From Pontiella desulfatans (lineage in GTDB: Bacteria > Verrucomicrobiota > Kiritimatiellia > Kiritimatiellales > Pontiellaceae): a DNA stretch of 32,000 bases. How positions within the stretch are numbered: position 1 is the first letter of the stretch; the number at the start of each line of letters is the position of its first letter. The translations under genes were made by a program, and so were the position numbers. Of this stretch, positions 3,001 to 20,296 are shown piece by piece. The stretch covers positions 632,330 through 664,329 of the forward strand of contig NZ_CAAHFG010000004.1 of NCBI RefSeq assembly GCF_900890425.1. Direction: 5' to 3'. The notes below the pieces were generated by a model. That model was not told the origin of the DNA. It worked only from the letters and a program-made list of their open reading frames with translations, and ran no database searches.

Positions 3001-3785
3001 GTCAGCTTTTCGAATCCGGGATTGACCTGGATGTACCGATAATCAATGGGGTTTCCCTTTTCATCGCGGATCATTTCATGCAGGGCGAAACCGGAGGTCA
3101 TGTTGTCGAACAACTGCCGGTAGCGCGCCTCGCTCTCCCGCAGTGCGTGTTGGGTTTGTTCGCGCTCAGTGATGTCGCGGATGTTCACCACGCTGACGCG
3201 CTCCCCGTTTTGGTCGTAGTAGGTGGCCTTGATTTCAACCGGGAAGACCGTTCCGTCTTTCTTGCGGTGGTAGCGAAGCGGCGCAACCTGAAGCTCCTGC
3301 CTGATCGCGCTGCTGGTTTTGTCCGGTTCGGCAGAAAGGTCGGTGTTCTTCAACTGCCTGAATTCATCATGGCTGTAGCCATACAGTGCTGCCGCCGCTT
3401 CGTTCGATTCAAGAATGGTTCCGCTGCCCTGGTCGAGCAGGAACATCGCGTCTCCTGCGGTGGCGAACACCAGCGTATAGCGCTCCTCGTTTGCGCGCCA
3501 TTCAGCGGTTTGCCTTCGGGCTTTTGAGTTGAGAGCCCAGCTGCAAGCCAGCAACGCCATGGCCGCAAAGATAACCAGCCCAATCACTCCCCATAGCCAT
3601 AGGGGAATGCCGTCCGCCTGTGCAACCGGAACAAGCGCCAAGGCGGCGCCAATCCCGTTGATGGAGAAGAAGGGTTCCATGGGGGAGGGCCCAACGTGGC
3701 GAGCCGAAGCTGTTTCGGCATGGCTTTGCAGCGTCACCGCCGTTGGCGGCAACCCGTGCAATCCGATCCTAAACAACTTTTTCAT
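1..3785 (-). CDS. Hybrid sensor histidine kinase / response regulator (TM - PAS repeats - PocR - PAS - HisKA - HATPase - REC); C-terminus runs off the window edge
   Basis: Not in the ORF track because it has no stop inside the window. My translation of the minus frame from ATG 3785..3783 gives MKKLFRIGLHG..., then a TM helix (LWLWGVIGLVIFAAMALLACSW). It also gives PAS-end text WMFEDISERR (rc of ~1411..1440), a PocR-like block CYDIIRKTEKGRANCHKSDAELG (rc of ~2118..2186) and the H-box GGIAHDFNNILQGIMGF (rc of ~940..986). A receiver domain ILLVEDDPELATMGMEILL...DLLVSDMELPGLRGDELADELRKRNPALPVLLLSGYRD is the rc of 1..~260. No listed minus ORF uses this frame over 3.8 kb. The + ORFs 264..1385 and 2109..3527 are its antisense shadows. 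Confidence 0.85.
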   Translation of the reverse strand, partial: MKKLFRIGLHGLPPTAVTLQSHAETASARHVGPSPMEPFFSINGIGAALALVPVAQADGIPLWLWGVIGLVIFAAMALLACSWALNSKARRQTAEWRANEERYTLVFATAGDAMFLLDQGSGTILESNEAAAALYGYSHDEFRQLKNTDLSAEPDKTSSAIRQELQVAPLRYHRKKDGTVFPVEIKATYYDQNGERVSVVNIRDITEREQTQHALRESEARYRQLFDNMTSGFALHEMIRDEKGNPIDYRYIQVNPGFEKLTGLAAERVVGRTVRELLPEIEPAWINQFGRVEETGEPAIIEDYSQDLNKHFETRAFRPAPGQFAVIFHDVSDRKHAEQVLAASEAKYRELFEHSADAFLIIQEGRFTDCNMAAVDMLGYSAKEDVIGKSPGDLSPTTQPDGLDSGKKAQDMLAAMETSQSLRFEWHHKKANGEVFPVAVTLTALTDNEGRPMIHTAWRNITARKQMEEALEKRIVALTRPLDDDAEIAFDDLFSRDAIQRIQDGFAAATGVASIITHPDGTPITEPSNFTSLCYDIIRKTEKGRANCHKSDAELGRHHQEGPIVQCCLSGGLWDAGASIEVGGRHIANWLIGQVRDESQSDEDMRRYAREIGADEDAFMDAFHRVPVMPRERFTKVADVLFTLANQLSATAYQNIQQARFIAAQKKAEQTLKDLAEVQGLILDNSTVGIALLENRTFKWVNPRMSELFNIPEQELQGASTRLLYASEEDFLENGAKAYAVLEQGNRFEHTLQFQRGDGSLFWCRLIGSALDPKSPLESGSLWMFEDISERRASENELLRLSTAIEQSPETVVITDLEGRIQYVNPAFERASGFAREEVLGMNPNMLSSGEHDEAYYADLWDTIASGGIWEGRIVNRRKIGTLYTEEASIAPVKDATGTITNYVAVKRDISEELIREEELRQAQKMDAVGQLAGGIAHDFNNILQGIMGFSEMLQMELDAQSPEYDGAVEIHKAAKRAAQLTRQLLTFSRKQPSHFETVDLNNTVHDALALLNMLLGEKYDIVLDLQQQLPPIHADPGQLTQVIINLAVNARDAMPEGGRLTISTDSGTFQPEDAALIPEAQAGSFVCLSITDTGCGMDKDTKKRLFEPFFTTKEVGEGTGLGLSVVYGIAQQSKGWVNVYSETGKGSCFKIYFPAIAASPASPEEPAHRHQAHGRATILLVEDDPELATMGMEILLNAGHDPILAISAEEAMEHFRDVDGNIDLLVSDMELPGLRGDELADELRKRNPALPVLLLSGYRD

Positions 3786-3909
3786 TCGCCTTTCTTTCCC
3801 TTTGCAGCGAGCTCGAAAGCTAGCTGGTTCCATCCATACCGTTGAGCAGAACTAGCACGAACCGTGCAAAAATCGCCAGTTCCCGCCCGGCTGATAACAT
3901 GGACGGAAA

Positions 3910-4515
3910 CTATTCCAACCCCTCCAGGTGCGAGGTGAGGAGCTGGCCGGTGTGGTCGATGGCGTCGGGATAGGCGGTGCGGAGCTCCTCGAAAAGCCTT
4001 TTGGCCTCGCCGTCCTTGCCGTCGTGTTTGAGGCGCATGCCGAGGTAGAGCCGGGCGTAGGCGCCAACCTGCACGCCGTTGGCGTAGAAACACATGTTGT
4101 GTGTTTCAATCGCCTGTTCCAGCAGCTTGATCTGCGCATCGCCTTCGGAGGCCTGCGCCAAGGCGAGCACGGCGCAGCCGGTACGGTTGGCGCGCGGATA
4201 TTTTTCGGTCAGCACGGCCACCGTCTTCTTGGCTTCTTCCGTTTTCCAGTCCTGGTTGGCGGCGTGGTAGCCCTTTTCAATCAGGTTGAGGTCGTTTCGG
4301 GAAAGGTATTCGCCATCCATCATCATGCGGGTACGCGCCAGTTCCTTTTGCCGGGCGGCGACTTCTTTCACGCGCTCTTCCTCCAGCACCGGGGCCAGCC
4401 TGGCCTCCAGTTCGGCCACGCGTTTTTCGAGTGCGACGATGCGCTGGAGCAAAACCCCTTCGTCGGCATGTACCGCTGCGGCGAACACGAATGGCAGGAT
4501 GAAGGCTCTTTTCAT
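3910..4515 (-). CDS. Hypothetical secreted protein (signal peptide, coiled coil, helical repeats)
   Basis: 201-aa ORF. It has a signal-peptide-like N-terminus MKRAFILPFVFAAAVHA, coiled-coil text LEKRVAELEARL and a helical remainder. Its ATG lies 1 nt after the end of the upstream small ORF. No family recognised. Confidence 0.6.
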   Translation of the reverse strand: MKRAFILPFVFAAAVHADEGVLLQRIVALEKRVAELEARLAPVLEEERVKEVAARQKELARTRMMMDGEYLSRNDLNLIEKGYHAANQDWKTEEAKKTVAVLTEKYPRANRTGCAVLALAQASEGDAQIKLLEQAIETHNMCFYANGVQVGAYARLYLGMRLKHDGKDGEAKRLFEELRTAYPDAIDHTGQLLTSHLEGLE

Positions 4516-7635: not shown

Positions 7636-7839
7636 AGTGCGGAGGGTGATACACGAATCCCCCAACCGGCACAACGGCAAAGGGTGGAAAGATTGACGGC
7701 AACCGCCGCCTCCCTGGCCGATCAACTATTTGGTATTGCGGCTCGACGGAAGTCTTTAATGTCAATATGATCTTTGGCAGATACTTAATCAGGCCCTGCT
7801 TTTGGGGATGCCGGGCCAACGGAAACCCAGGGGTGGAAC

Positions 7840-8091
7840 GTGGTTGACGAAGCTTTGATCGAACACCTGGCGGAAGCGGTGCATGTCCGCTGGATGGAAG
7901 GGCGTCTGGCCGAGGGCTGGACGCATGGGCCGGTGCGCGATGAAGCCGCCAAACAGCATCCGTGCCTCGTTCCCTACAACGACTTGCCCGAAAGCGAACG
8001 GGAATACGACCGCGCCACCGTCCGCGCCACGCTGGATGGGCTGAAGAATCTGGGGTATCGAATCCAGGGGGCAGGGGATGGAAAAGAATAG
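7840..8091 (+). CDS. Stand-alone RyR (ryanodine-receptor repeat) domain protein
   Basis: 83-aa ORF with a GTG start preceded by AGGGGTGGA. The text LAEAVHVRWMEGRLAEGWTHGPVRDEAAKQHPCLVPYNDLPESEREYDRATVRATLDGLKNLGYRI matches the bacterial RyR-domain pattern (H.rW...GW..G......HP.LVPY..L.e.ek.yDR). It is clearly paralogous to the C-terminus of the 14091..15965 product. It overlaps the next ORF start by 14 nt. Confidence 0.75.
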   Translation: MVDEALIEHLAEAVHVRWMEGRLAEGWTHGPVRDEAAKQHPCLVPYNDLPESEREYDRATVRATLDGLKNLGYRIQGAGDGKE

Positions 8092-11000
8092 ACGACCGGT
8101 TTTTAGGATATTCGTGAGTTCGCCCTCCGACGTAGTCGAGGAGCGGCGGGTGGTCGATACCGTGGTTGCCGAGCTGTGCGAACGGTATGCTTCTTGGGTG
8201 CATATCGAACGGGTGCTCTGGGAAAAGGAACTACTGTGCGCCAATCGGGGTGGTTTTCAGGATCAGATTGTTCCCATTGAGCAAACACACCTCGTGGTTT
8301 CCATCCTTTGGTCGAAGATTGGTTATCCGCTGGGAGAAGGAAAGACGGAGGACATTAAACCGGTGTTTCATCCGCCCACCTGGCAAGGGCGGAATCCGAC
8401 TGGAACCGAGCTGGAGATCGTAAGGGCGTTGCAGGCTTATGACGATACCCCCTCCTCCGAGCGCTTCCCCGACCTGCTCGTCTACCGCAAAACCGGGCGC
8501 GAACCTTTGGTTCCCATTGAGGAGGCGGAGGATGCCAGCCGGCAGCTCCGCGAAACGCGCACCTTTTTCGACTGGCTAACCAAAAACGAAAGCGATGGCA
8601 GCTTCTCTGCCGCCTTTCACCAATTCGAGTCGCTCAACCAGTTCGAGGAACTGCTCAAGGAGCACCTGCCGCGGTGGATCGAGGATCGGCTCGGGGTCGG
8701 GCGCGAACAGAGCAAGCTGCACCTCACCTGGCCGCATGGTTCGCCCTTCCGCGCGCTCGAACCGTTCGACGTCCACCACCATCCCGTCTTCTTCGGGCGT
8801 CAAAAGGAAACATTCGGCATCTTGGAACGCTTCCGGATGCTGGACGAACAGGGCATGGCGTTTCTGATGGTACTGGGCATGAGCGGTAGCGGAAAGTCCT
8901 CGCTCATCCGGGCGGGGGTTATAGCACGTCTCGATGCCCGTCGGGATGAGCGCTGGTGCTATGCCATCATGAATCCCGGCTTGGAAGCGAATCTGGCCGG
9001 GGCATTGATTGAGGCGTTGCACAATGAAACCGCCTTGCCGGAATTGAGTGGTAATGAAACCCTTGCCAACATCGCCAAGGATAGTCCGCAAAGTCTCGGC
9101 CTGATGGTCGAGGATTGCTTGGAAGCGAAAGAGGCGAATCTATTCCTCTTCATTGACCAGTTCGAGGAATTGTTCACGGGAACCAGGAATGCCGCAGAAC
9201 GCAAGGCGTTTGCCCGAATCCTCTTGGAACTCGCACGCAGTAAGCGGGTTTGGGTGTGCGCCACCATGCGTAGCGATTTCTACCATCGACTCGAAGCGTT
9301 GCCCGACCTGCTCGATGCCTCGGGTAGCGATGGCCTTTTCCATCTGCAGTCTCCCTCGCTCTCCGCGATCGACCTGATCGTCCGCCGTCCCGCCCTGGCC
9401 GCCGGGCTCCGCTATGAAGAGATTGACGGCGTCGGGCTCGACCAAGCCATGATCGACGACGCCAACGGACTGGGCGACTGCCTCCCGTTACTGGAATTTA
9501 CCCTGCATCGCCTTTATGAAGTGGGTTACGAGGATGGAATACTCGCATACGACGAATACGAATCCATCGGCAAGATCGGCGGCGCGGTTGACCAGCACGC
9601 CCGATCCGTCGTCGCCTCGATGGACAAGGAGGAGCAAAGGGCGCTGCCGCGAATTTTCGATGAGCTGGTTGGGCTGGACAGCGACGGCAAGGCTGTCCGC
9701 CAATATCCCCGGCGCAAATTTTTCGGGCAGGATACTCCTGCCGACCGCATGATCAAGCGACTGGTTAAAGAACGATTGCTGATTGCCGGGGAGGACGCCG
9801 AACACGAGCCCACGGTCGCCCTTGCCCATGATCTGTTGCTGGTGCACTGGTCGGAGGTGGGGCTTCACATCGAACAGAACCGGGAACGCATGCAGCAGCG
9901 CCAATGGCTCCGCGAATCCGCCCGGCAGTGGGATGCCGAACACCGCAACCGCGCCCTGCTGCTCGAAACCGACCGGCTGGTCGATCGCGCGGAAATCCAA
10001 TGGGTGTATGCCGGTGGTGCATTAGGCGACCTTGAGCGCGCATTCGTCGAGGCATCGGTCAAGCGGCGGGGCCGCAAGAGTGTGCTTGGCTGGGTCGCTA
10101 TCGGTACGATGGATATTATTTTGCTGGTATGTATGGGAATTCTTGTTGCAGGGATCGTTTTTCCATCGTTCCGCGATGTAGTGGTGGAAAACGATTCGAT
10201 GGAGATATGGGTGGATTTCTATGCAACCCCCTTGGCCATTCTTCTGGCCTGGATGCCTGCACTCCTGTTCATGGGTTGGCTAACGTGGCGCAAGGTCATG
10301 CCCGTACCTTCGGTCAAATGTGTAACGACAGACCTGAGGGTTGCATTGGTTGGACTTGGCTTGGATCTGGCGGGATATGCCACATGTTTTACCGATGGAA
10401 CGGATTTGTCCGATAGCCTGGCGTTCGGGATTCCCGTCACCCTGCTGTGGGGGCTCTGGATTGGAAATAGCCTTCGAACCAAGCGGCAGATTGCCGGATG
10501 GAGCAGGAAGCGTAATCCAATCCGGCGCCTGAACGTGTTGCGCGTATATTTCAAGCCGTTGTTACGGGGGATGGTCTATGCCGCTGCAACGGTGTTTATT
10601 ATTGCCATCATTGCCGTCGCCATGGAGGAGACCTCCACCGAGCAGGCGCAGTGGAATCTCGACAAGGTGATGGCCGAATCCTGGAATTACAATGGCGGTG
10701 CCATGCTCTCGCTCGTCGAGGACGGGGCGGGGGTTGACACCCGCAATGCGTACGGGAGCTCACCACTGCATTTGGCCGCCTTATACAACGACACGGCCAC
10801 GGCGCAATCGTTGCTGGATTTGCATGGGGCGGACATTGATGCCGTCGACAAAGCAGGCAACACTCCGCTGTTTCTTGCTCTCCAAGGAAGTTCGACCGCA
10901 CACACGAACGATGTGGTTTGGGCGTTGCTTTCCCACGGGGCGGATTTGGAGCATCGGAACTATATCGGGGGAACCCCGCTGGGATTTGCCACCGAACTTG

Positions 11001-12133
11001 GAAAGGTCGATCTGACCGAGCTCCTCCTGAGGCAGGGGGCGGAAACAGAGGTGCGCACCCATCTCGGCGCAACTCCGGCCTATTCGGCGGCCATGAACGG
11101 CCATCTACATGTGCTGTCGCTGTTGTGGGGCTGTACACAGGAAGAGGTGGCCCGATCGCTTTCAGCGTCGGCGCAAAAACAGGACGGCCTGGATTTCGAC
11201 CGGCTTTGCTGCGCGGCCGTGTGGCACCGGTGGAAAGGGGCATTGGAGGAATCGCGCAGGCTCTATGCCGCCGCGCTTGCCTTGGCGGAAACCGAAGGCA
11301 ACGGCCTTGAGGCGTTCGTGCTATCGGAATACGCACAAACCTATTTTGTGGTTGATCCCTCTGCGGCTGCCGGCATCGACCTTGTTGAGCGGGCATGCGA
11401 AGAGGAATCCTCCGGTTTGATGAGGGAGAACCTCGTGGGCAACCTGCTTTGGCACTATGTTCAGGGCGGGCGTTTTGACGATGCGAACAAGCGGGCGCAG
11501 GAAATGATGCCGACCCTGGACGAGTCGGATCCGTCTCCCTTGTGGATGAATTGTGCGCACGCCCTCTTGTTTACCGGCGACAAGGAGGGGGCACGCGAAA
11601 TCTATGCCCGGCATTGGAACGAGACGTTTGTCGATGGCCGGAACTGGGGAAATGAAGCCGTTTCCGACTGGTCGCAGTTGGAATGGCTGGAGGTGGACAC
11701 CGATATCCTTCACTCGGCCAAAACCGAGTGGGAGGTGCATACTCCCGACCTCTCCTTCATGAGAAAACCGGAAGGGTGCGACACCGGAGAGCTGAAAACC
11801 TTGCGGGATCGCATGGTCGGAAGGTGGCGATGTGAAGAGCTGTTCGAAGGCCGGGTTTTCATTCTTGAGTGGACGATTCTTCCCGATGGCCGATGCAGCT
11901 ACAACTTTTTCCGTGCCGCCGATAGATCACTTCACCAAACCTCCTATTCCACTTGGAAGATAGGCATCCACGACGGCATGAATATTTGGGGCGAACAAGG
12001 CGGTATCGACGGTGCTGTCACGTTGGCAAGCATACAGTTCGGGGCGGATGGCGACGAACTTGTTCTCACCCGCGCGGAAACCACATCCCAGTGGAACAAT
12101 TTCCAGCAAAGGCTCTACAGAAGGATCAAATAA
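8078..12133 (+). CDS. DUF4062-like (TIR-fold) - nSTAND-type P-loop NTPase - 4-5 TM block - ankyrin repeats - unknown C-terminal domains
   Basis: 1351-aa ORF. The N-terminus RIFVSSPSDVVEERRVV...GTELEIVRAL...LLVYRK (~8099..8498) looks like DUF4062/TIR-fold. The text ALEPFDVHHHPVFFGRQKE plus Walker A GMSGSGKSS (8876..8902) and Walker B LFLFIDQFEELF (from 9140) fits a STAND NTPase. PLLEFTLHRLY and ALAHDLLLVHW fit its winged-helix part. Hydrophobic helices span 10082..10624. Ankyrin text (GSSPLHLAALYNDTATAQSLLDLHGADIDAVDKAGNTPLFLA, GGTPLGFATELGKVDLTELLLRQGA) spans ~10690..11130. About 330 aa of unassigned sequence follow. Confidence 0.85.
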   Translation: MEKNRRPVFRIFVSSPSDVVEERRVVDTVVAELCERYASWVHIERVLWEKELLCANRGGFQDQIVPIEQTHLVVSILWSKIGYPLGEGKTEDIKPVFHPPTWQGRNPTGTELEIVRALQAYDDTPSSERFPDLLVYRKTGREPLVPIEEAEDASRQLRETRTFFDWLTKNESDGSFSAAFHQFESLNQFEELLKEHLPRWIEDRLGVGREQSKLHLTWPHGSPFRALEPFDVHHHPVFFGRQKETFGILERFRMLDEQGMAFLMVLGMSGSGKSSLIRAGVIARLDARRDERWCYAIMNPGLEANLAGALIEALHNETALPELSGNETLANIAKDSPQSLGLMVEDCLEAKEANLFLFIDQFEELFTGTRNAAERKAFARILLELARSKRVWVCATMRSDFYHRLEALPDLLDASGSDGLFHLQSPSLSAIDLIVRRPALAAGLRYEEIDGVGLDQAMIDDANGLGDCLPLLEFTLHRLYEVGYEDGILAYDEYESIGKIGGAVDQHARSVVASMDKEEQRALPRIFDELVGLDSDGKAVRQYPRRKFFGQDTPADRMIKRLVKERLLIAGEDAEHEPTVALAHDLLLVHWSEVGLHIEQNRERMQQRQWLRESARQWDAEHRNRALLLETDRLVDRAEIQWVYAGGALGDLERAFVEASVKRRGRKSVLGWVAIGTMDIILLVCMGILVAGIVFPSFRDVVVENDSMEIWVDFYATPLAILLAWMPALLFMGWLTWRKVMPVPSVKCVTTDLRVALVGLGLDLAGYATCFTDGTDLSDSLAFGIPVTLLWGLWIGNSLRTKRQIAGWSRKRNPIRRLNVLRVYFKPLLRGMVYAAATVFIIAIIAVAMEETSTEQAQWNLDKVMAESWNYNGGAMLSLVEDGAGVDTRNAYGSSPLHLAALYNDTATAQSLLDLHGADIDAVDKAGNTPLFLALQGSSTAHTNDVVWALLSHGADLEHRNYIGGTPLGFATELGKVDLTELLLRQGAETEVRTHLGATPAYSAAMNGHLHVLSLLWGCTQEEVARSLSASAQKQDGLDFDRLCCAAVWHRWKGALEESRRLYAAALALAETEGNGLEAFVLSEYAQTYFVVDPSAAAGIDLVERACEEESSGLMRENLVGNLLWHYVQGGRFDDANKRAQEMMPTLDESDPSPLWMNCAHALLFTGDKEGAREIYARHWNETFVDGRNWGNEAVSDWSQLEWLEVDTDILHSAKTEWEVHTPDLSFMRKPEGCDTGELKTLRDRMVGRWRCEELFEGRVFILEWTILPDGRCSYNFFRAADRSLHQTSYSTWKIGIHDGMNIWGEQGGIDGAVTLASIQFGADGDELVLTRAETTSQWNNFQQRLYRRIK

Positions 12134-12234
12134 TGAAGAAAAAAAGCACATTCAGGTGGTGGTCGCAGATGGTTTACTTGGGCGAGGAGTTCTGCTCCAG
12201 GCAATTGTTCCGTTTTATCCCGGAGTTTGTTTAA
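12133..12234 (+). pseudogene. Relic copy of the 5' end of the downstream channel-like gene (33 codons)
   Basis: Its ATG overlaps the STAND stop (TAATG). It encodes MKKKSTFRWWSQMVYLG..., compared with MKKNAFGCWWSQMVYRA... at 14091. A 20-nt perfect core, tggtggtcgcagatggttta, occurs at 12157..12176 and 14115..14134. The core sits inside ~100 nt of diverged similarity with compensating indels, and the relic ends at an early TAA. Confidence 0.5.
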
Positions 12235-12285
12235 TGGCTCTGATGGGAATCATGTAGTGGAACCCATTTAGCGGAAAGATAGAAG

Positions 12286-14079
12286 ATGAGTGAATCCAAA
12301 CCGATGAGACTTTTCATTTCCTATTCATCGAAATCCGGCGAGGCCGCCCGCTCGTTCGCGGACAAGCTGCGAACCCTGGGCTACGACACCTGGCTCGCGC
12401 CGGAGGAGATCCATGGCGGGCAGGATTTTGCCGAGCAGATTATGGAAGGCTTGGATCAATGCCACGGATTCGTGCTGTTGCTGACGGCCGAGGCCAACGA
12501 GTCGCCCCATGTGAAGAGCGAGCTGAACCAGGCCTTTGGCCGCAAGATGCCGATCCTGCCCGTCCTGTTGGAAGAGTTTGAGCTATCGCGGAGCTATGTC
12601 TACTATCTTTCCCACGCCCAATGGGTGGATGCCTCCAACGGCGCGGACGGTTGCTGGGATGAGGTAACCACGGTGCTGGATGCCTGGCGCGCGGGGCGGA
12701 CGCCGACAAGAACCGTCCAGCCCCCCTTGCCCTTCAAGCGGGTTAGGGCGTGGCCGAAGGTGGCCGCAGGCGTGGCGGTGGCGGGGCTGCTGGCTCTGGG
12801 GGTCTGGAAACTCGCCCCGAACGACGCTCCGAGTCCGGAAGACGAAAACCAGGTACGGCGCGTGGCCTCGCACATGCTGTTCATGCTGGTTTGCTGGGAT
12901 CAGCAGTTCGGATCCTTCGAGCGCTATACGGAATATCTTGAAGGTAAGGTCATATCCGGCTCGGACTATCCGATGGATATGCAGATCAAGGAGCTGGAAG
13001 GTCAGGCGGCACATGTTGCGGGCGAAATGCAAAATACCGGTGCGAAAATACACCCGTTCCCGGAAGGCCTGCTCGCGTGGATTCAGGGATCGCCTTTGAA
13101 CGCGGCCGACGCCGATGCGTTCGTGCCCTTTGCTTCCACGATGACCGAGGAGTTGGTGAACAATGTCGGCTTCCTGCGGAATTGCGTCGATCCGCGGTTC
13201 GTGATGAGTCCGGCCAACAAGCGCGAGCTGCTTGTCCAATACCGGAAGTGGAACCGCGAAAGCGCCGCGATGGCGTGGTATGGCGCAGCGGAATTCCTCG
13301 CGCCGCTGAACCAGGATACGGAAGGGTTCCGGAAGGCCTTCCGTGAGCCGCTCTCCACCTGCGCCTATCTGGCCAGCCTCAACCTGCTTTGGTTGGACGA
13401 CCAGGCCGAATGCGAACGCCTGGCGAAAAGCGCCGAGGAGCGGATGAACCGCATCATGAACGAAATGGCTGCGCTGGTGGGCGAAGAGCAGGCCAACCTC
13501 AGCCGCCAGGAAGATGCGATGCTTCCGCTTCTTCAAAAGGCCGAAGAGGTGGAGCAAATGGAAAAGCAGTTGGCGGAGCTGGAGGCCATGCTTGCCGAAC
13601 AGGAACCCGCCATCCGCGCCGACTGCACGCTCCTGCCCGACGACGATCCGGGCATCATGTGGGGCAAGATTATCCGGCTGATGGCCTGCGGCATGCATGC
13701 CGATGCCTCCCTGCAAATGGATCGGTTCCTGGAATTCAACCCGGACTCCACCTCTGCCCCCCGCGTGGTCAAGGCGGTCAAGGCCTATGCAACGGAAGCC
13801 GCAAAAACCGGCATGCGGCACGGGGCCGTGGTGTGGGGCACCGAGAACGATGTTGTGCACTCCGTGCTTCGTCCGGGCGACATTGTGGTTGAGCTGAACG
13901 GTGAGCAGGTTCTTGGCGGGGCGTCTTATGTCGCAATCAAACAAAAGAGCGGTGCGGAGAACAGCGACTTTCGATACCTGCGGTTGGATTCCAACGGGCT
14001 TCTAATGGAGCATGTGGATAAAGGAAATTCCAACGAGCCCCGCATCAGCATTACGGATATCGTGGAACAGATGGATTGA
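12286..14079 (+). CDS. Membrane-anchored TIR-domain protein with large C-terminal (predicted extracytoplasmic) region and PDZ-like end
   Basis: 597-aa ORF. The TIR_2-type text is RLFISYSSKSGEAARSFADKLRTLGYDTWLAPEEIHGGQDFAEQIMEGLDQCHGFVLLLTAEANESPHVKSELNQAF (~12304..12661), including a candidate catalytic Glu in SPHVKSEL. A single TM helix WPKVAAGVAVAGLLALGVWKL (12751..12813) has basic residues before it and acidic residues after. A coiled coil (EEVEQMEKQLAELEAMLAEQE) follows. PDZ-like text LRPGDIVVELNGEQVLG lies at ~13819..14017. Confidence 0.85.
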   Translation: MSESKPMRLFISYSSKSGEAARSFADKLRTLGYDTWLAPEEIHGGQDFAEQIMEGLDQCHGFVLLLTAEANESPHVKSELNQAFGRKMPILPVLLEEFELSRSYVYYLSHAQWVDASNGADGCWDEVTTVLDAWRAGRTPTRTVQPPLPFKRVRAWPKVAAGVAVAGLLALGVWKLAPNDAPSPEDENQVRRVASHMLFMLVCWDQQFGSFERYTEYLEGKVISGSDYPMDMQIKELEGQAAHVAGEMQNTGAKIHPFPEGLLAWIQGSPLNAADADAFVPFASTMTEELVNNVGFLRNCVDPRFVMSPANKRELLVQYRKWNRESAAMAWYGAAEFLAPLNQDTEGFRKAFREPLSTCAYLASLNLLWLDDQAECERLAKSAEERMNRIMNEMAALVGEEQANLSRQEDAMLPLLQKAEEVEQMEKQLAELEAMLAEQEPAIRADCTLLPDDDPGIMWGKIIRLMACGMHADASLQMDRFLEFNPDSTSAPRVVKAVKAYATEAAKTGMRHGAVVWGTENDVVHSVLRPGDIVVELNGEQVLGGASYVAIKQKSGAENSDFRYLRLDSNGLLMEHVDKGNSNEPRISITDIVEQMD

Positions 14080-14090
14080 AAGGTGGAACA

Positions 14091-15965
14091 ATGAAAAAAA
14101 ATGCATTCGGATGTTGGTGGTCGCAGATGGTTTATCGGGCGTGGAGTTCGACGCCGCGGCAAATTATCGTTTTGATCGGGGCGTTTGCACTGATTGTGGC
14201 CTTCGGGGCCGTGTTGCTCTGCCTGCCGTACTTCGAGTTCGGCGCGAAGGATCTCGGCGACAATCCGTGGTGGGTCTCGTTCATGCATGCAACGTGCCCG
14301 GACTATCTCGGCGAAACGACCGGCTGGAGCCGGGTGCTCGACTTCTTCGTGACCTACGGCGGATGGTTCGTGCTGCAAGGGGTGTTCGTGTCGATCCTCG
14401 TCAACGCGCTCGACCGCCGGGGCCAACGCACCTTGGAGGGCGATGCCCGCTGCCGGTTCAAGGACGGGCACGGCGTGGTGCTGGGCTGGGGCGCCATGGG
14501 CGTCTCCGTGGTTGAAAAGCTCGCCAAGCCCGGCCGCAAGGTCATCATCCTCTCGCAGGAAAACGCCGAGGAGGTGCGCGAACAACTGCGCACCGAGTTC
14601 GATTGCCCCGAATGTGCGGTCGATCCGCGCAAGGTCTTCGTCTTCCGCGGCTCGCTCGATTCCAACACCGATCTCAAGGCCTTGAATGTTGCCGGGGCCG
14701 ACGAGGTGGTGGTGTTGGGCGACCGCAACGTGCGCGGCAACGATAGCCGCAACCTGCAGGCCGCCACCCGCATCGCCGAGCTGCGCGATGCGCGGAAGAT
14801 GGAAGGGAAAGTCACCATCCATATCCATATCGACGATCTGCGTTCCTACGACCTGATCCAGGACATCGACATTCCCTCGGGCAGGCAGGGGGTGGCCAAC
14901 TTCCACCCCTTCAACTTTTGCGAGGACTGGGCGCGGCGCATCTGGTGCGCCATTCCGGGTGGCTCAACGGCCCATGTGTATCCGCCCTTGGCCTATGCTC
15001 CCGAAGTTGCCCGGAAGGAATCCTCCGCCTATGTGCATCTCTTCGTGCTCGGTTTCGGCCAGATGGGCCAGGCCATCGCCGTGCAGGCCGCACGGATTGC
15101 CCACTATGCCTCCGGCAGGAAAACCAAAATCACCGTCGTTGATTCCAAGCTCGAAGCCCGCGAGGTCTCCTTCCGCAGCCATTGTGCCATCGATGCCATG
15201 CCGGACATCGAATTCACCTTCCTCAAGGCCTATGCCGAATCGGCCACGGTACGCGACAAGCTGGCCGAAGCCGCCGACGATCCGAACCAGATCCTCAGCG
15301 TCGCCGTCTGCTTCTCCGACCCCGACGCGTCCATGAGTACCGCGCTTTCGTTGCCGGCTCCCGTCATTACCGGCGACAATCCCGTCTACGTCCGGCAGGA
15401 AACCCGCTCCGGCCTCTCCTCGCTTGCGCAGAAAATCAAGGACCAGAAGCGGTGGAAGGATATCCGTTTCTTCGGCACCCTCGACGAATGCTACGGGTTG
15501 GTTCCCGGGCAAGACAAGATTGCCGAACAGATCCACAACAGCTACATCGAGCAGGCCAAGGCCGAAGGCTGGTACGATCCCGAAAAGCCCAGCTTCCATC
15601 CCTGGAAATCGCTCGCCGAGCACTACCGCTGGTCGAACCGCTACCAGTCCGACGCCTTCCTCGAGCGCATCCGCGCCTTCGGCTACTCGCTCCAGCCGGT
15701 CTCCGCTTCCGAAACCATCTCCCGCTTCCCCCTGGAGCAACTCGAGCTCCTGGCCGAAACCGAGCACGACCGCTGGTGGGCCGAGCGCCTTCTCGCCGGC
15801 TGGACTCCCGGCGACCGCAACGACGACCTCCGCCAGCACCCCAACCTCGTCCCCTACGAAGGGCTCGACGAACCCACCAAGGAATACGACCGCGACGCCA
15901 TCCGCAACATGCCCTCCCTCATCCAGGACAACTTCGGGATGGGGTTGGTTCGCGGAGGTTCGTAA
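14091..15965 (+). CDS. 2-TM pore-like (Trk/Ktr MPM-like) module fused to two KTN/RCK-type Rossmann domains and two RyR-like domains
   Basis: The ORF track starts at TTG 14076. I prefer ATG 14091, which lies 4 nt after AGGTGG (14081..14086). M1 is IIVLIGAFALIVAFGAVLLCLP (14163..14225). An acidic loop NPWWVSFMHATCPDYLGETTGW follows, then M2 FFVTYGGWFVLQGVFVSILVNAL (14343..14411). GxGxxG motifs are VVLGWGAMG (~14475) and FVLGFGQMG...ITVVDSK (~15039). A degenerate RyR-like stretch is IAEQIHNSYIEQAKAEGW (~15516..15700). A clear RyR domain LAETEHDRWWAERLLAGWTPGDRNDDLRQHPNLVPYEGLDEPTKEYDRDAIRN lies at ~15740..15930. Confidence 0.8.
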   Translation: MKKNAFGCWWSQMVYRAWSSTPRQIIVLIGAFALIVAFGAVLLCLPYFEFGAKDLGDNPWWVSFMHATCPDYLGETTGWSRVLDFFVTYGGWFVLQGVFVSILVNALDRRGQRTLEGDARCRFKDGHGVVLGWGAMGVSVVEKLAKPGRKVIILSQENAEEVREQLRTEFDCPECAVDPRKVFVFRGSLDSNTDLKALNVAGADEVVVLGDRNVRGNDSRNLQAATRIAELRDARKMEGKVTIHIHIDDLRSYDLIQDIDIPSGRQGVANFHPFNFCEDWARRIWCAIPGGSTAHVYPPLAYAPEVARKESSAYVHLFVLGFGQMGQAIAVQAARIAHYASGRKTKITVVDSKLEAREVSFRSHCAIDAMPDIEFTFLKAYAESATVRDKLAEAADDPNQILSVAVCFSDPDASMSTALSLPAPVITGDNPVYVRQETRSGLSSLAQKIKDQKRWKDIRFFGTLDECYGLVPGQDKIAEQIHNSYIEQAKAEGWYDPEKPSFHPWKSLAEHYRWSNRYQSDAFLERIRAFGYSLQPVSASETISRFPLEQLELLAETEHDRWWAERLLAGWTPGDRNDDLRQHPNLVPYEGLDEPTKEYDRDAIRNMPSLIQDNFGMGLVRGGS

Positions 15966-16044
15966 GCGCGAACCGAGCCACGAAGCCCCTTTTAAGGGTT
16001 AAAGGTCTCCGGTGCCCCGGCTCCGGATTTTGCCGGATTGCCGC

Positions 16045-16073
16045 TTGACGGCGCGGGGCGGGAAGCGTACTTT
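16045..16073 (+). promoter_or_regulatory. Candidate sigma70-type promoter of nusA-infB
   Basis: TTGACG (16045..16050), a 17-nt spacer, then TACTTT (16068..16073), about 110 nt upstream of the nusA ATG. Motif match only. Confidence 0.35.
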
Positions 16074-16104
16074 GCTCGACTTGTTGATAGTTTGGCTCTG
16101 GATG

Positions 16105-16130
16105 AGAGTGGCCCCTGGCCGCTCTTTTGT
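16105..16130 (+). terminator. Terminator-like hairpin: nusA leader attenuator or terminator of the upstream operon
   Basis: agagtggcc-cct-ggccgctct forms a 9-bp stem with one G-T pair (16105..16125). It is followed by tttgttctct. Confidence 0.4.
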
Positions 16131-16182
16131 TCTCTATGGGCCTGTTATTTGATTTATTGAAGGTTGAGCAAGGAGGTGGCGA

Positions 16183-19735: not shown

Positions 19736-19846
19736 CGTTTTTCAGAAGGGCGATCATTGATACTTCTTTGAAGGATTGCAAACTCGTTTGGGCAATGGAG
19801 ATGCATCGATGGTTGCTTGTCAGGAGTAATAACCAAGGAGGCTACA

Positions 19847-20296
19847 ATGGCAGCGAAGAAGAAAGCAGCAAAGAAGGCACCGGCTAAGAAGGCCGCGAAG
19901 AAAGCACCGGCTAAGAAAGCCGTAAAGAAAGCACCGGCCAAGAAAGCACCGGCCAAGAAGAAGGCCGCCGCCAAGAAGGCACCGGCCAAGAAGAAGGCCG
20001 CGAAGAAAGCGCCCGCCAAGAAGGCTGCGAAGAAAGCGCCCGCCAAGAAGAAGGCTGCGAAGAAAGCGCCCGCCAAGAAGAAGGCTGCGAAGAAAGCGCC
20101 TGCCAAGAAGAAAGCCGCCAAGAAGGCACCGGCTAAGAAGAAAGCAGCCAAGAAGGCACCGGCTAAGAAGGCTGCCAAGAAGGCACCGGCTAAAAAGAAA
20201 GCCGTGAAGAAAGCGCCGGCCAAGAAGAAAGCCGCCGCCAAGAAGGCACCGGCCAAGAAGAAGGCTGCGAAGAAAAAAGCCGCTAAAAAGAAATAA
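19847..20296 (+). CDS. Histone H1-like Lys/Ala/Pro repeat protein (Hc2/AlgP-like nucleoid-associated candidate)
   Basis: The ATG at 19847 lies 6 nt after AAGGAGG. The track start at TTG 19817 is less likely. The 149-aa product is made almost only of K, A, P and V, in about 14 copies of KKAPAKK(K)AA. It is flanked by terminators on both sides. Confidence 0.75.
19853..20293 (+). repeat. Tandem 27/30-nt coding repeats
   Basis: The 30-nt unit agaaagcgcccgccaagaagaaggctgcga is identical at 20031..20060 and 20061..20090 and continues to 20100. Degenerate 27- and 30-nt versions fill the whole CDS. Confidence 0.85.

Follow-up and report, generated by a model that had tools for sequence, protein, structure and literature searches.

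A predicted TIR-linked cation channel with tandem RCK domains and a RyR repeat pair in Pontiella desulfatans

Genes and features at the locus

In Pontiella desulfatans (Kiritimatiellota), a cassette of genes read from one strand lies between der and nusA-infB, and its last member, PDESU_05751, is the subject of this article. The stretch of DNA that was analysed, hereafter the window, is 32,000 nucleotides long and corresponds to positions 632,330 to 664,329 of contig NZ_CAAHFG010000004.1 (assembly GCF_900890425.1). Within it, the cassette leads from a gene for a RyR-only protein, through genes for an nSTAND1 NTPase and a TIR_2 protein, to the gene for what is here called the channel (Table 1). 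NusA, IF-2 and the four cassette proteins are identical to RefSeq proteins of P. desulfatans. The channel protein is annotated only as a “RyR domain-containing protein”. Its ATG at 14091 is also the start chosen by NCBI, with an AGGTGG Shine-Dalgarno sequence 6-7 nt upstream, and its sequence is identical across 12 independent assemblies. The TIR gene ends just before it, the stop codon being 11 nt from the channel start.

Table 1. Features of the cassette, in positions of the window, and RyR-pair proteins of other TIR-linked loci (locus numbers L) in positions of their own loci; aa, amino acids; nt, nucleotides; TM, transmembrane; 2TM, two TM helices; ORF, open reading frame; AF2, AlphaFold2
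Feature	Position	Strand	Description
Stand-alone single-repeat RyR protein, PDESU_05747	7840..8091	+	83 aa; Pfam RyR E = 4.4e-22; overlaps the nSTAND1 start by 14 nt
nSTAND1 NTPase	8078..12133	+	1351 aa; nSTAND1 E = 3.5e-86 at residues 223-625; Ank_2 at 875-960; TM segments; TPR-like C-terminus
33-aa ORF, diverged copy of the channel 5′ end	12133..12234	+	~72% DNA identity over ~100 nt, with a 20-nt exact run
TIR_2 - single TM - large C-terminal domain protein, PDESU_05750	12286..14079	+	597 aa; TIR_2 E = 1.2e-19 at residues 10-119
Channel gene, PDESU_05751	14091..15965	+	ORF; 624 aa = WP_136082650.1; 2TM pore, two tandem RCK domains, RyR repeat pair
M1 outer TM helix	14151..14240	+	residues 21-50; hydropathy peak 24-46; AF2 helix 21-50
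Pore helix and filter-like segment	14265..14324	+	residues 59-78; W60-W-V-S-F-M-H-A-T68-C-P-D71-Y-L-G74
M2 inner helix, continuing into the RCK1 linker	14325..14435	+	residues 79-115; two conserved glycines, G91 and G97
RCK1	14469..14990	+	residues ~127-300; motif H127-GVVLGWGAMG, CASTOR-like
RCK2	15030..15500	+	residues ~314-470; G321-F-G-Q-M-G326 ... I347-T-V-V-D351 dinucleotide fingerprint
RyR repeat 1	15504..15698	+	residues 472-536; degenerate relative to Pfam RyR, with its own conserved motif
RyR repeat 2	15732..15953	+	residues 548-621; canonical; H559, W562, H583, D600; best Pfam stretch 550-607
Terminator-like hairpin	16104..16126	+	10-bp stem then T-run, between the channel gene and nusA; consensus match only
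Other RyR-pair proteins	L013 1734-4646; L015 5724-8705; L025 7943-10447; L076 7844-10486; L051 4443-7067; L002 17628-20567		in TIR-linked loci

Architecture of the channel protein

Hydropathy gives exactly two TM segments in the channel (residues ~24-46 and ~85-107). Basic residues before TM1 and after TM2, together with a net acidic loop between them, as read from the sequence, point to an N-in/C-in topology in which both termini are predicted to be cytoplasmic. In the AF2 monomer, helices at residues 21-50, 59-68 and 79-115 give two TM helices with a re-entrant pore helix between them, and both M2 glycines are nearly invariant in the family. A first-pass annotation of this DNA, made from the letters and a list of open reading frames, had described a single M1-loop-M2 (MPM) unit without a canonical TVGYG filter and had placed the KTN (RCK) and RyR domains in the cytoplasm on account of charge; all of this holds. 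Its comparison of the N-terminus with the start of Trk/Ktr transporters does not, for both the pore profile and the structural searches lead to 2TM tandem-RCK channels.

The pore profile was built from the first ~130 alignment positions (query residues 1-128) of 26 subfamily members and searched against 177,635 PDB sequences. All 60 matches listed are K+-channel pore domains; the best is Lmo2059 (E = 1.9e-4), followed by Kv4.2, KvAP, Shaker, KcsA, MloK1 and SthK. Pore helix and filter fall in register with the TTVGYG of Lmo2059, Kv, KvAP and KcsA (“..lWWvllhfidPGn..” against “..lWWaivtattvGYG..”). By fold and by sequence profile, the pore is thus a member of the K+-channel superfamily, and Pfam Ion_trans_2 finds no match in the protein. 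In the loop at residues 60-79 (WWVSFMHATCPDYLGETTGW), TVGYG is absent: where the signature would read T-[VI]-G-[YF]-G, the query has T68-C-P-D-Y-L-G74 and the family consensus is (D/E)69-(S/P)70-G71. The filter Gly is kept in 97 of the 133 family members that were aligned, while the P. desulfatans ortholog has an Asp (D71) in its place and a Cys at the family's D/E69 position. For want of TVGYG the channel is not to be called K+-selective, and a pore of non-selective or divalent-permeable cation type would be plausible.

The two RCK domains that follow carry GxGxxG motifs, G132-W-G-A-M-G137 in RCK1 and G321-F-G-Q-M-G326 in RCK2. As had been noticed at first pass, the second is followed by ITVVD (I347-T-V-V-D351). 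Pfam recognizes the domains at the very edge of its thresholds: TrkA_N (PF02254) scores exactly its cut-off of 23.8 bits, and Slo-like_RCK, with 24.1 bits, barely exceeds its own of 24. Relatives of the channel score with TrkA_N at E = 1e-13 to 1e-22. RCK2 is near-invariant among the family members, with G321 in 133/133, G326 in 128/133 and D351 in 129/133, a conserved GxGxxG...D pattern that suggests dinucleotide binding. In most of the family RCK1 shows a canonical GxGxxG and then VVIE; in the query's subclade it reads LGWGAMG...IILSQ, which is CASTOR-like, and the acidic residue after beta2 has been lost.

What does the whole chain resemble? Two AF2 monomer models were obtained, one from a 10-sequence alignment (predicted local distance difference test, pLDDT, 74) and one from a 60-sequence alignment (pLDDT 90.2; predicted TM-score, pTM, 0.86). 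For both, the top Foldseek matches in the PDB (probability 1.00) are Slo1/BK, Slo2.2, GsuK, LjCASTOR, MtDMI1, MthK and TrkA, with ADP- and NAD-bound entries among those of GsuK, and no enzyme family is found among the matches. RCK2 has the fold of the second RCK of GsuK, CASTOR and Slo1. Enzyme Rossmann families (F420_oxidored, Sacchrp_dh_NADP, 3HCDH_N, ApbA) give weak Pfam matches confined to the GxGxxG turn and were rejected, the structural neighbours being all RCK channels. The Rossmann domains are therefore of KTN/RCK type, as the first-pass annotation had proposed, and not those of an enzyme. Together with the single MPM unit and its RCKs in cis, these fold matches make the tandem-RCK channels (GsuK, CASTOR, BK) the right analogue, rather than TrkH/KtrB.

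The C-terminus carries one degenerate and one clear RyR domain, again in keeping with the first description: Pfam RyR (PF02026) matches two stretches of the channel with 61.9 bits, above a cut-off of 27.4. H482 persists in repeat 1, but Y485 replaces W and SNR replaces YDR. Repeat 1 is nonetheless well conserved in its own way (H482 in 114/133 members, Y485 in 124/133, W505 in 133/133, with S515-N516-R517 and Q519 also conserved), and it aligns with the stand-alone RyR protein at E = 2e-7. In repeat 2, E558 is found in 133/133, H559 in 132/133, W562 in 120/133, H583 in 62/133 and D600 in 113/133. Searched against PDB sequences, the channel finds the R12 domain of RyR1-3 and BtRyR down to E = 1e-22. 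Foldseek agrees, matching the C-terminus with probability 1.00 to RyR R12 domains that span both repeats as one: 6uhi over 169 columns (TM-score on target 0.64) and 6uhh (human RyR3 848-1055 with ATP) over 190 columns (TM-score on target 0.56).

The role of such bacterial domains had been called “essentially unknown” in the first-pass annotation, a statement overtaken by two 2026 preprints in which phage RyR domains bind or cleave the 2′/3′ cyclic ADP-ribose (cADPR) made by TIR enzymes (PMC13232231; 10.64898/2026.06.04.730250). The RyR domain of RyDEP (gp78 of phage DyoEdafos), a glycosidase, acts on TIR-made 2′/3′cADPR through contacts with H75, W78, H100 and D117, while most of the other phage RyR homologues tested bind 2′/3′cADPR signals, the two studied in detail with nanomolar affinity (PMC13232231). 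RyR Tad (gp68 of Pectobacterium phage vB_PatP_CB1) is a 3′cADPR sponge acting through H129/W132, H154 and D171 (10.64898/2026.06.04.730250). In an alignment with gp68, BtRyR and RyR3, the contact residues of RyDEP and RyR Tad correspond to H559, W562, H583 and D600 of the channel.

The RyR pair is not restricted to channels. In the same TIR-linked loci it also ends proteins with quite different front ends: NUDIX + RelA_SpoT + SLOG (LSDAT_prok), AAA ATPases (one of them also with NUDIX), a nucleotide (adenylate/guanylate) cyclase and a YAcAr-type SLOG. Small RyR-only genes recur there as well. Judging from these domain contexts, the pair appears to behave as a portable ligand module of nucleotide-signalling conflict systems. 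Some channel homologues of 900-1300 aa (P0014, P0018, P0021) carry two or three tandem RyR pairs, with up to 4 Pfam stretches, which recalls the R12 + R34 of animals. Among ten long family members there is no TIR-channel fusion, and a tblastn search of phage genomes with the RyR repeat gave two weak unannotated matches only.

Linkage to TIR genes and the rest of the cassette

A word-indexed homology search returned only 12 relatives of the channel, and the family seemed rare. The closest of them adjoin SIR2-TIR and nSTAND1 genes (Hydrogenedentota), DUF4062-STAND and TIR genes (Cloacimonadota), or DUF4062-nSTAND1 and NUDIX genes. An exhaustive profile search corrected this apparent rarity: 4,287 representatives reach E <= 1e-30, and among clusters at 50% identity over 150 full-length matches fall below 1e-118. 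Linkage was then assessed in 80 genomic loci from one-genome-per-species contigs, covering Actinomycetota, Chloroflexota, Gemmatimonadota, Planctomycetota, Verrucomicrobiota, Bacteroidota, Bacillota, Ignavibacteria, Nitrospirota and one Methanoregula, by scoring all six-frame ORFs against locally iterated hidden Markov models.

Among the 72 non-redundant loci with a channel homologue, 42 have a TIR gene and 58 have a TIR or STAND NTPase gene. When lineages are counted at 50% identity, a TIR lies within 3 kb of the channel in 26/46 and within 5 kb in 28/46. The density of TIR genes falls from 29 per 246 kb at 0-3 kb to 2 per 294 kb at 5-10 kb (binomial p = 1.8e-8), the control being the far flanks of the same loci, that is, an internal one and not an independent genome-wide background. 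Many pairs are less than 200 bp apart, either co-directional or head-to-head. The genetic link to TIR enzymes, which the first-pass annotation had singled out as something that would be informative, is real and conserved across phyla.

The partner TIR domains are also alike: 55 of the 56 channel-linked TIR matches are Pfam TIR_2, and all 56 share one invariant Glu column. Typically, a TIR_2 domain is followed after 40-95 residues by one TM helix and then by a large domain, either WD40 propellers (TIR-TM-WD40 in L028, L031, L033, L038 and L080) or FGE-sulfatase plus TPR (TIR-TM-FGE-sulfatase-TPR in L022). PDESU_05750 of the window is comparable. This layout resembles that of a transmembrane receptor and hints at transmembrane sensing upstream of bacterial TIR signalling. 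In one actinobacterial-type locus (L007, 9540-9953), only 48 nt separate the end of a NUDIX hydrolase gene from the channel homologue that follows it, with a DUF4062-nSTAND1 gene 8 kb off; the hydrolase is another ADP-ribose-related neighbour.

In the window itself, the TM segment of PDESU_05750 begins ~32 residues past the TIR domain, and its Glu78 occupies the only column invariant in the 56 channel-linked TIR domains. From the position of the S..V..E motif, Glu78 is probably the catalytic Glu and the TIR domain catalytically competent. PDESU_05750 is the putative signal-making enzyme of the cassette. Its C-terminal domain has no convincing Pfam assignment. At the other end of the cassette, the 83-aa RyR protein shares 37% identity (E = 2e-15) with the active C-domain of RyR Tad gp68 and 50% with channel repeat 2, and it keeps the H..W, HP and YDR ligand residues. 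It could serve the cassette as its own buffer or hydrolase of the signal, and is possibly the sort of gene captured by phages.

Between these two genes, the nSTAND1 protein starts with a domain (8078-8737, residues 1-220; RIFVSSPSDVVEERRVV...) that has no Pfam match and that matches the start of PADLOC PDC-S60 (E = 4.4e-6). The same domain recurs in L022 and L060; by eye it looks DUF4062/TIR-like. Right after the nSTAND1 stop comes the 33-aa ORF, whose peptide (MKKKSTFRWWSQMVY...) can be set beside that of the channel start (MKKNAFGCWWSQMVY..., 14091-14190). Since this ORF copies the channel start, the TIR gene is bracketed by two channel-gene starts, in what looks like the scar of a TIR-gene insertion or cassette exchange. 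The ungapped repeat finder missed this duplicate, which contains indels, and gave RyR-RyR DNA similarity only.

Outside P. desulfatans, a collection of 15 billion proteins contains no relative of the cassette proteins at 90% identity, while NusA does have such relatives. Moreover, when window 7700-16180 is set against L095 and L096, from two further Pontiella genomes, the site directly upstream of nusA proves to be without the cassette: it is empty in P. agarivorans, and in strain S94 it is occupied by genes for a GerE regulator, a protein of 1848 aa and a Y1 transposase. The cassette is thus accessory and sits in a variable spot.

Known relatives, proposed mechanism and alternatives

Among known channels, the multi-ligand-gated K+ channel GsuK of Geobacter sulfurreducens (4gx0, 4gx1, 4gx2, 4gx5) is built alike, with one 2TM unit and two tandem RCKs per chain. 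It is one of the best Foldseek matches (E = 4e-8, TM-score on target 0.56-0.58), and its RCKs bind nucleotides, as its ADP and NAD entries attest. It differs in having a canonical K+ filter, no RyR repeats and no known link to a TIR gene, at ~13% identity. The cation channels CASTOR/POLLUX/DMI1 (gating rings 6o7a, 6o6j, 7vm8), the top match of the first channel model (E = 7e-10), share an acidic non-canonical filter, and P0011, a bacterial Castor_Poll_mid relative, matches the N-terminal quarter of the query (E = 3e-9). RCK1 starts with “LGW(G/S)” and M2 has a ...SN..ERR... linker, both of which we read, from the P0011 alignment and the CASTOR sequence, as CASTOR-like. Castor_Poll_mid (PF06241) has no Pfam match in the channel at E <= 0.1, and the likeness does not go beyond fold and motifs. 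CASTOR, with additional TM helices and with Ca2+ sites, lacks RyR repeats and serves plant nuclear-envelope symbiosis signalling. In Trk/Ktr systems, too, KTN/RCK domains regulate a pore derived from K+ channels, and TrkA (4g65) is among the fold matches. Identity with these transporters was rejected: they have four MPM repeats and a separate TrkA/KtrA ring subunit, against a single MPM with fused RCKs here.

In animal RyRs, the R12 domain is likewise a pair of tandem repeats forming one globular domain on a tetrameric cation channel. Its fold matches the bacterial pair with TM-scores of 0.56-0.64, and it shares the H/W/H/D ligand residues of channel repeat 2. The animal pore is a 6TM RyR/IP3R pore, against a 2TM pore and RCK ring in the bacterial protein, which is ~8x smaller; regulation of animal RyR by cADPR via R12 is itself unproven. 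The phage proteins RyDEP and RyR Tad have the same PF02026 domain and the same contact residues as repeat 2. They are soluble anti-defence homodimers of single repeats, whereas the channel repeats are host-encoded, tandem, fused to a channel and next to a TIR gene.

Thoeris systems provide the genetic comparison. A survey of TIR systems lists 29 putative Thoeris types, including a type X with an “ion channel” effector, ThsK, which is validated against phages and whose signal is unknown (10.64898/2025.12.03.692087). As in the present cassette, a TIR gene is there paired with a K+-channel-like membrane effector. The type X locus (L097, identified through a 100%-identical metagenomic TIR) encodes at 3358-3984 a ThsK of 208 aa with several TM segments, a TLTYGG pore and no RCK or RyR, and for these reasons the idea that the channel is a ThsK homologue was rejected. 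By eye, no cytoplasmic sensor domain can be recognized in this ThsK. The type X TIR belongs to a different, ThsB-like cluster from the channel-linked TIRs. Plasmid TIR matches tried as type X Thoeris turned out to be type II (Macro) systems, and the real type X locus came from a metagenome scan. The pairing of TIR and channel therefore has a precedent in type X Thoeris, with a different architecture, and the arrangement typical of Thoeris, a TIR gene adjoining a dedicated effector gene, is what is seen here, with an 11-nt gap in the window and a TIR within 3 kb in 26/46 lineages.

The reading we favour, and which we regard as evenly balanced between right and wrong, is a Thoeris-like TIR cassette with the channel as effector, a RyR-sensed, RCK-ringed cation channel opened by a TIR-made signal of ADP-ribose (ADPR) type. 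Four subunits would form a cation pore under a ring of eight RCKs. A trigger would be sensed by the extracytoplasmic domain of the TIR protein, by the STAND NTPase, or by both, and the TIR enzyme would then use NAD+ to make an ADP-ribose signal, either cyclic or modified in some other way. The RyR pair would bind this signal, perhaps along with RCK2 at its Rossmann site; the RCK ring would open the pore, and the resulting cation flux would collapse the membrane potential, leading to cell arrest or death (abortive infection or regulated cell death). A threshold would probably come from the small stand-alone RyR protein, through buffering or hydrolysis of stray signal. While architecture, residue conservation and genetic linkage are shown, tetramer, conduction, identity of the ligand, direction of gating and biological outcome are all inferred. 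In a narrower form, which we put forward tentatively and would sooner doubt than assert, the protein would amount to a bacterial “mini-RyR”: TIR-made cyclic ADP-ribose would bind its R12-type RyR domain and in this way directly open a tetrameric cation channel.

Several observations weigh against the proposed cassette mechanism. The filter is far from TVGYG, and the family's Gly71 has become Asp in the P. desulfatans ortholog; AF2 also models residues 70-75 as a short helix and not as an extended filter, so that this ortholog may conduct differently, or not at all. In the RyR pair, H583 is kept in fewer than half of the members (the 62/133 given above), and since the contact residues are common to binders and to the glycosidase RyDEP, the sequence cannot separate sensing from degrading. 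About 40% of lineages have no TIR within 5 kb, some of them having STAND/DUF4062 only or truncated flanks. The partner TIRs are mostly membrane-anchored with large domains, unlike the soluble ThsB of characterised Thoeris. Finally, neither PADLOC (2023) nor NCBIfam has a model matching the channel; the small RyR protein has none there either.

Could the RCKs, rather than the RyR pair, be the sensor? As the main alternative, the channel might be gated by NAD(H) or ADP at its RCK Rossmann sites, with the TIR protein acting mainly as an NADase, so that falling NAD+ or rising ADPR would open the pore via RCK2, and the RyR pair and small RyR protein would be glycosidases or sponges that clear cADPR-type by-products or reset the system. 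Indeed, no feature of the family is more conserved than the RCK2 fingerprint, GsuK, which is among the closest structural neighbours, has been crystallised with ADP and NAD in its RCKs (4gx1, 4gx2), RyDEP shows that a RyR domain can be an enzyme through the same His/Asp dyad as in the channel, and many bacterial TIRs are NAD+-depleting effectors (10.64898/2025.12.03.692087). On the other hand, most phage RyR homologues tested bind and do not cleave (PMC13232231), the RCK1 acidic residue after beta2 is lost in the query's subclade, and a RyR pair that also ends unrelated effector-like proteins of TIR loci is more what one expects of a sensor than of a housekeeping hydrolase. We consider NAD-type gating unlikely. 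A second alternative is that the N-terminal module of the P. desulfatans ortholog is no ion-selective gated pore and serves as a membrane anchor or membrane-disrupting element, the protein being a tethered nucleotide sensor, a scaffold or a signal sink for TIR/STAND proteins. The change of the filter Gly to D71 and of D/E69 to Cys would fit, as would the helix modelled past the pore helix and the TM segments present in both the nSTAND1 and TIR partners; other Thoeris effectors kill by non-channel membrane mechanisms (10.64898/2025.12.03.692087). Such an anchor is nevertheless decidedly improbable, given that the pore helix, the M2 glycines and the M2-RCK linker are conserved in the subfamily, that the whole-chain fold matches true channels including their pore domains (MthK, GsuK, Slo1), and that a sequence identical in 12 independent assemblies is not that of a decaying gene.

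That the TIR adjacency is meaningless, and the protein an ordinary housekeeping K+ or cation channel regulated by nucleotides or Ca2+ (GsuK/Kch-like), is very improbable indeed in view of the linkage data and the accessory distribution. Tandem-RCK 2TM channels are common in bacteria, a distant match (P0012) is annotated “voltage-gated potassium channel Kch”, and the gene does lie between the core genes der and nusA-infB. Yet TIR proximity depends strongly on distance and recurs in lineages of many phyla, the cassette is absent from the same spot in sister Pontiella genomes, the K+-selective filter is missing, and the RyR pair is a module that has since been connected with the products of TIR enzymes.

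A Thoeris-like cassette with a RyR-sensed channel would have consequences beyond P. desulfatans. A direct action of cADPR on ryanodine receptors has been argued for decades, and no cellular protein was previously known to connect a RyR domain with a channel and with a TIR enzyme at once. Here a RyR domain, an ion channel and a presumed TIR cyclase are physically joined in one operon; if the channel is opened by an ADP-ribose signal that a TIR enzyme makes, it would be the bacterial counterpart of the cADPR-RyR link. The family would add a new class of effector and sensor to TIR (Thoeris-like) immunity. Being small, rich in soluble domains, widespread and paired with a presumed signal generator, it offers a tractable test of ligand gating by RyR domains. 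It also suggests an origin for the phage RyR anti-defence proteins and for the R12/R34 domains of animals: should the “mini-RyR” version be true, the repeats of animal RyRs would have their ancestor in a module that sensed cADPR in prokaryotic immune or cell-death channels, and phages would have gained their RyR sponges and glycosidases by capturing copies of a host sensor or buffer.

What is new is the combination of sensor and effector in TIR signalling; the pairing of a TIR with a channel was already known from type X Thoeris. No prior description of a RyR + TrkA, RyR + nSTAND, Thoeris + RCK or R12 + TIR combination was found in the full-text literature. RyR, PF02026 and TrkA go unmentioned in those portions of the text and supplements of the TIR survey that were covered, one of them in part (10.64898/2025.12.03.692087), and fusions of RyR domains to channels in hosts are undescribed in both phage-RyR preprints (PMC13232231; 10.64898/2026.06.04.730250).

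As to the remainder of the window, a promoter and terminator scan gave counts not above those of shuffled sequence, and Rfam and tRNA scans found no match. Downstream of infB, positions 19817-20296 hold an ORF of 159 aa made up almost entirely of AKKAAKK-type Lys/Ala repeats, in the manner of histone H1 or HU tails.

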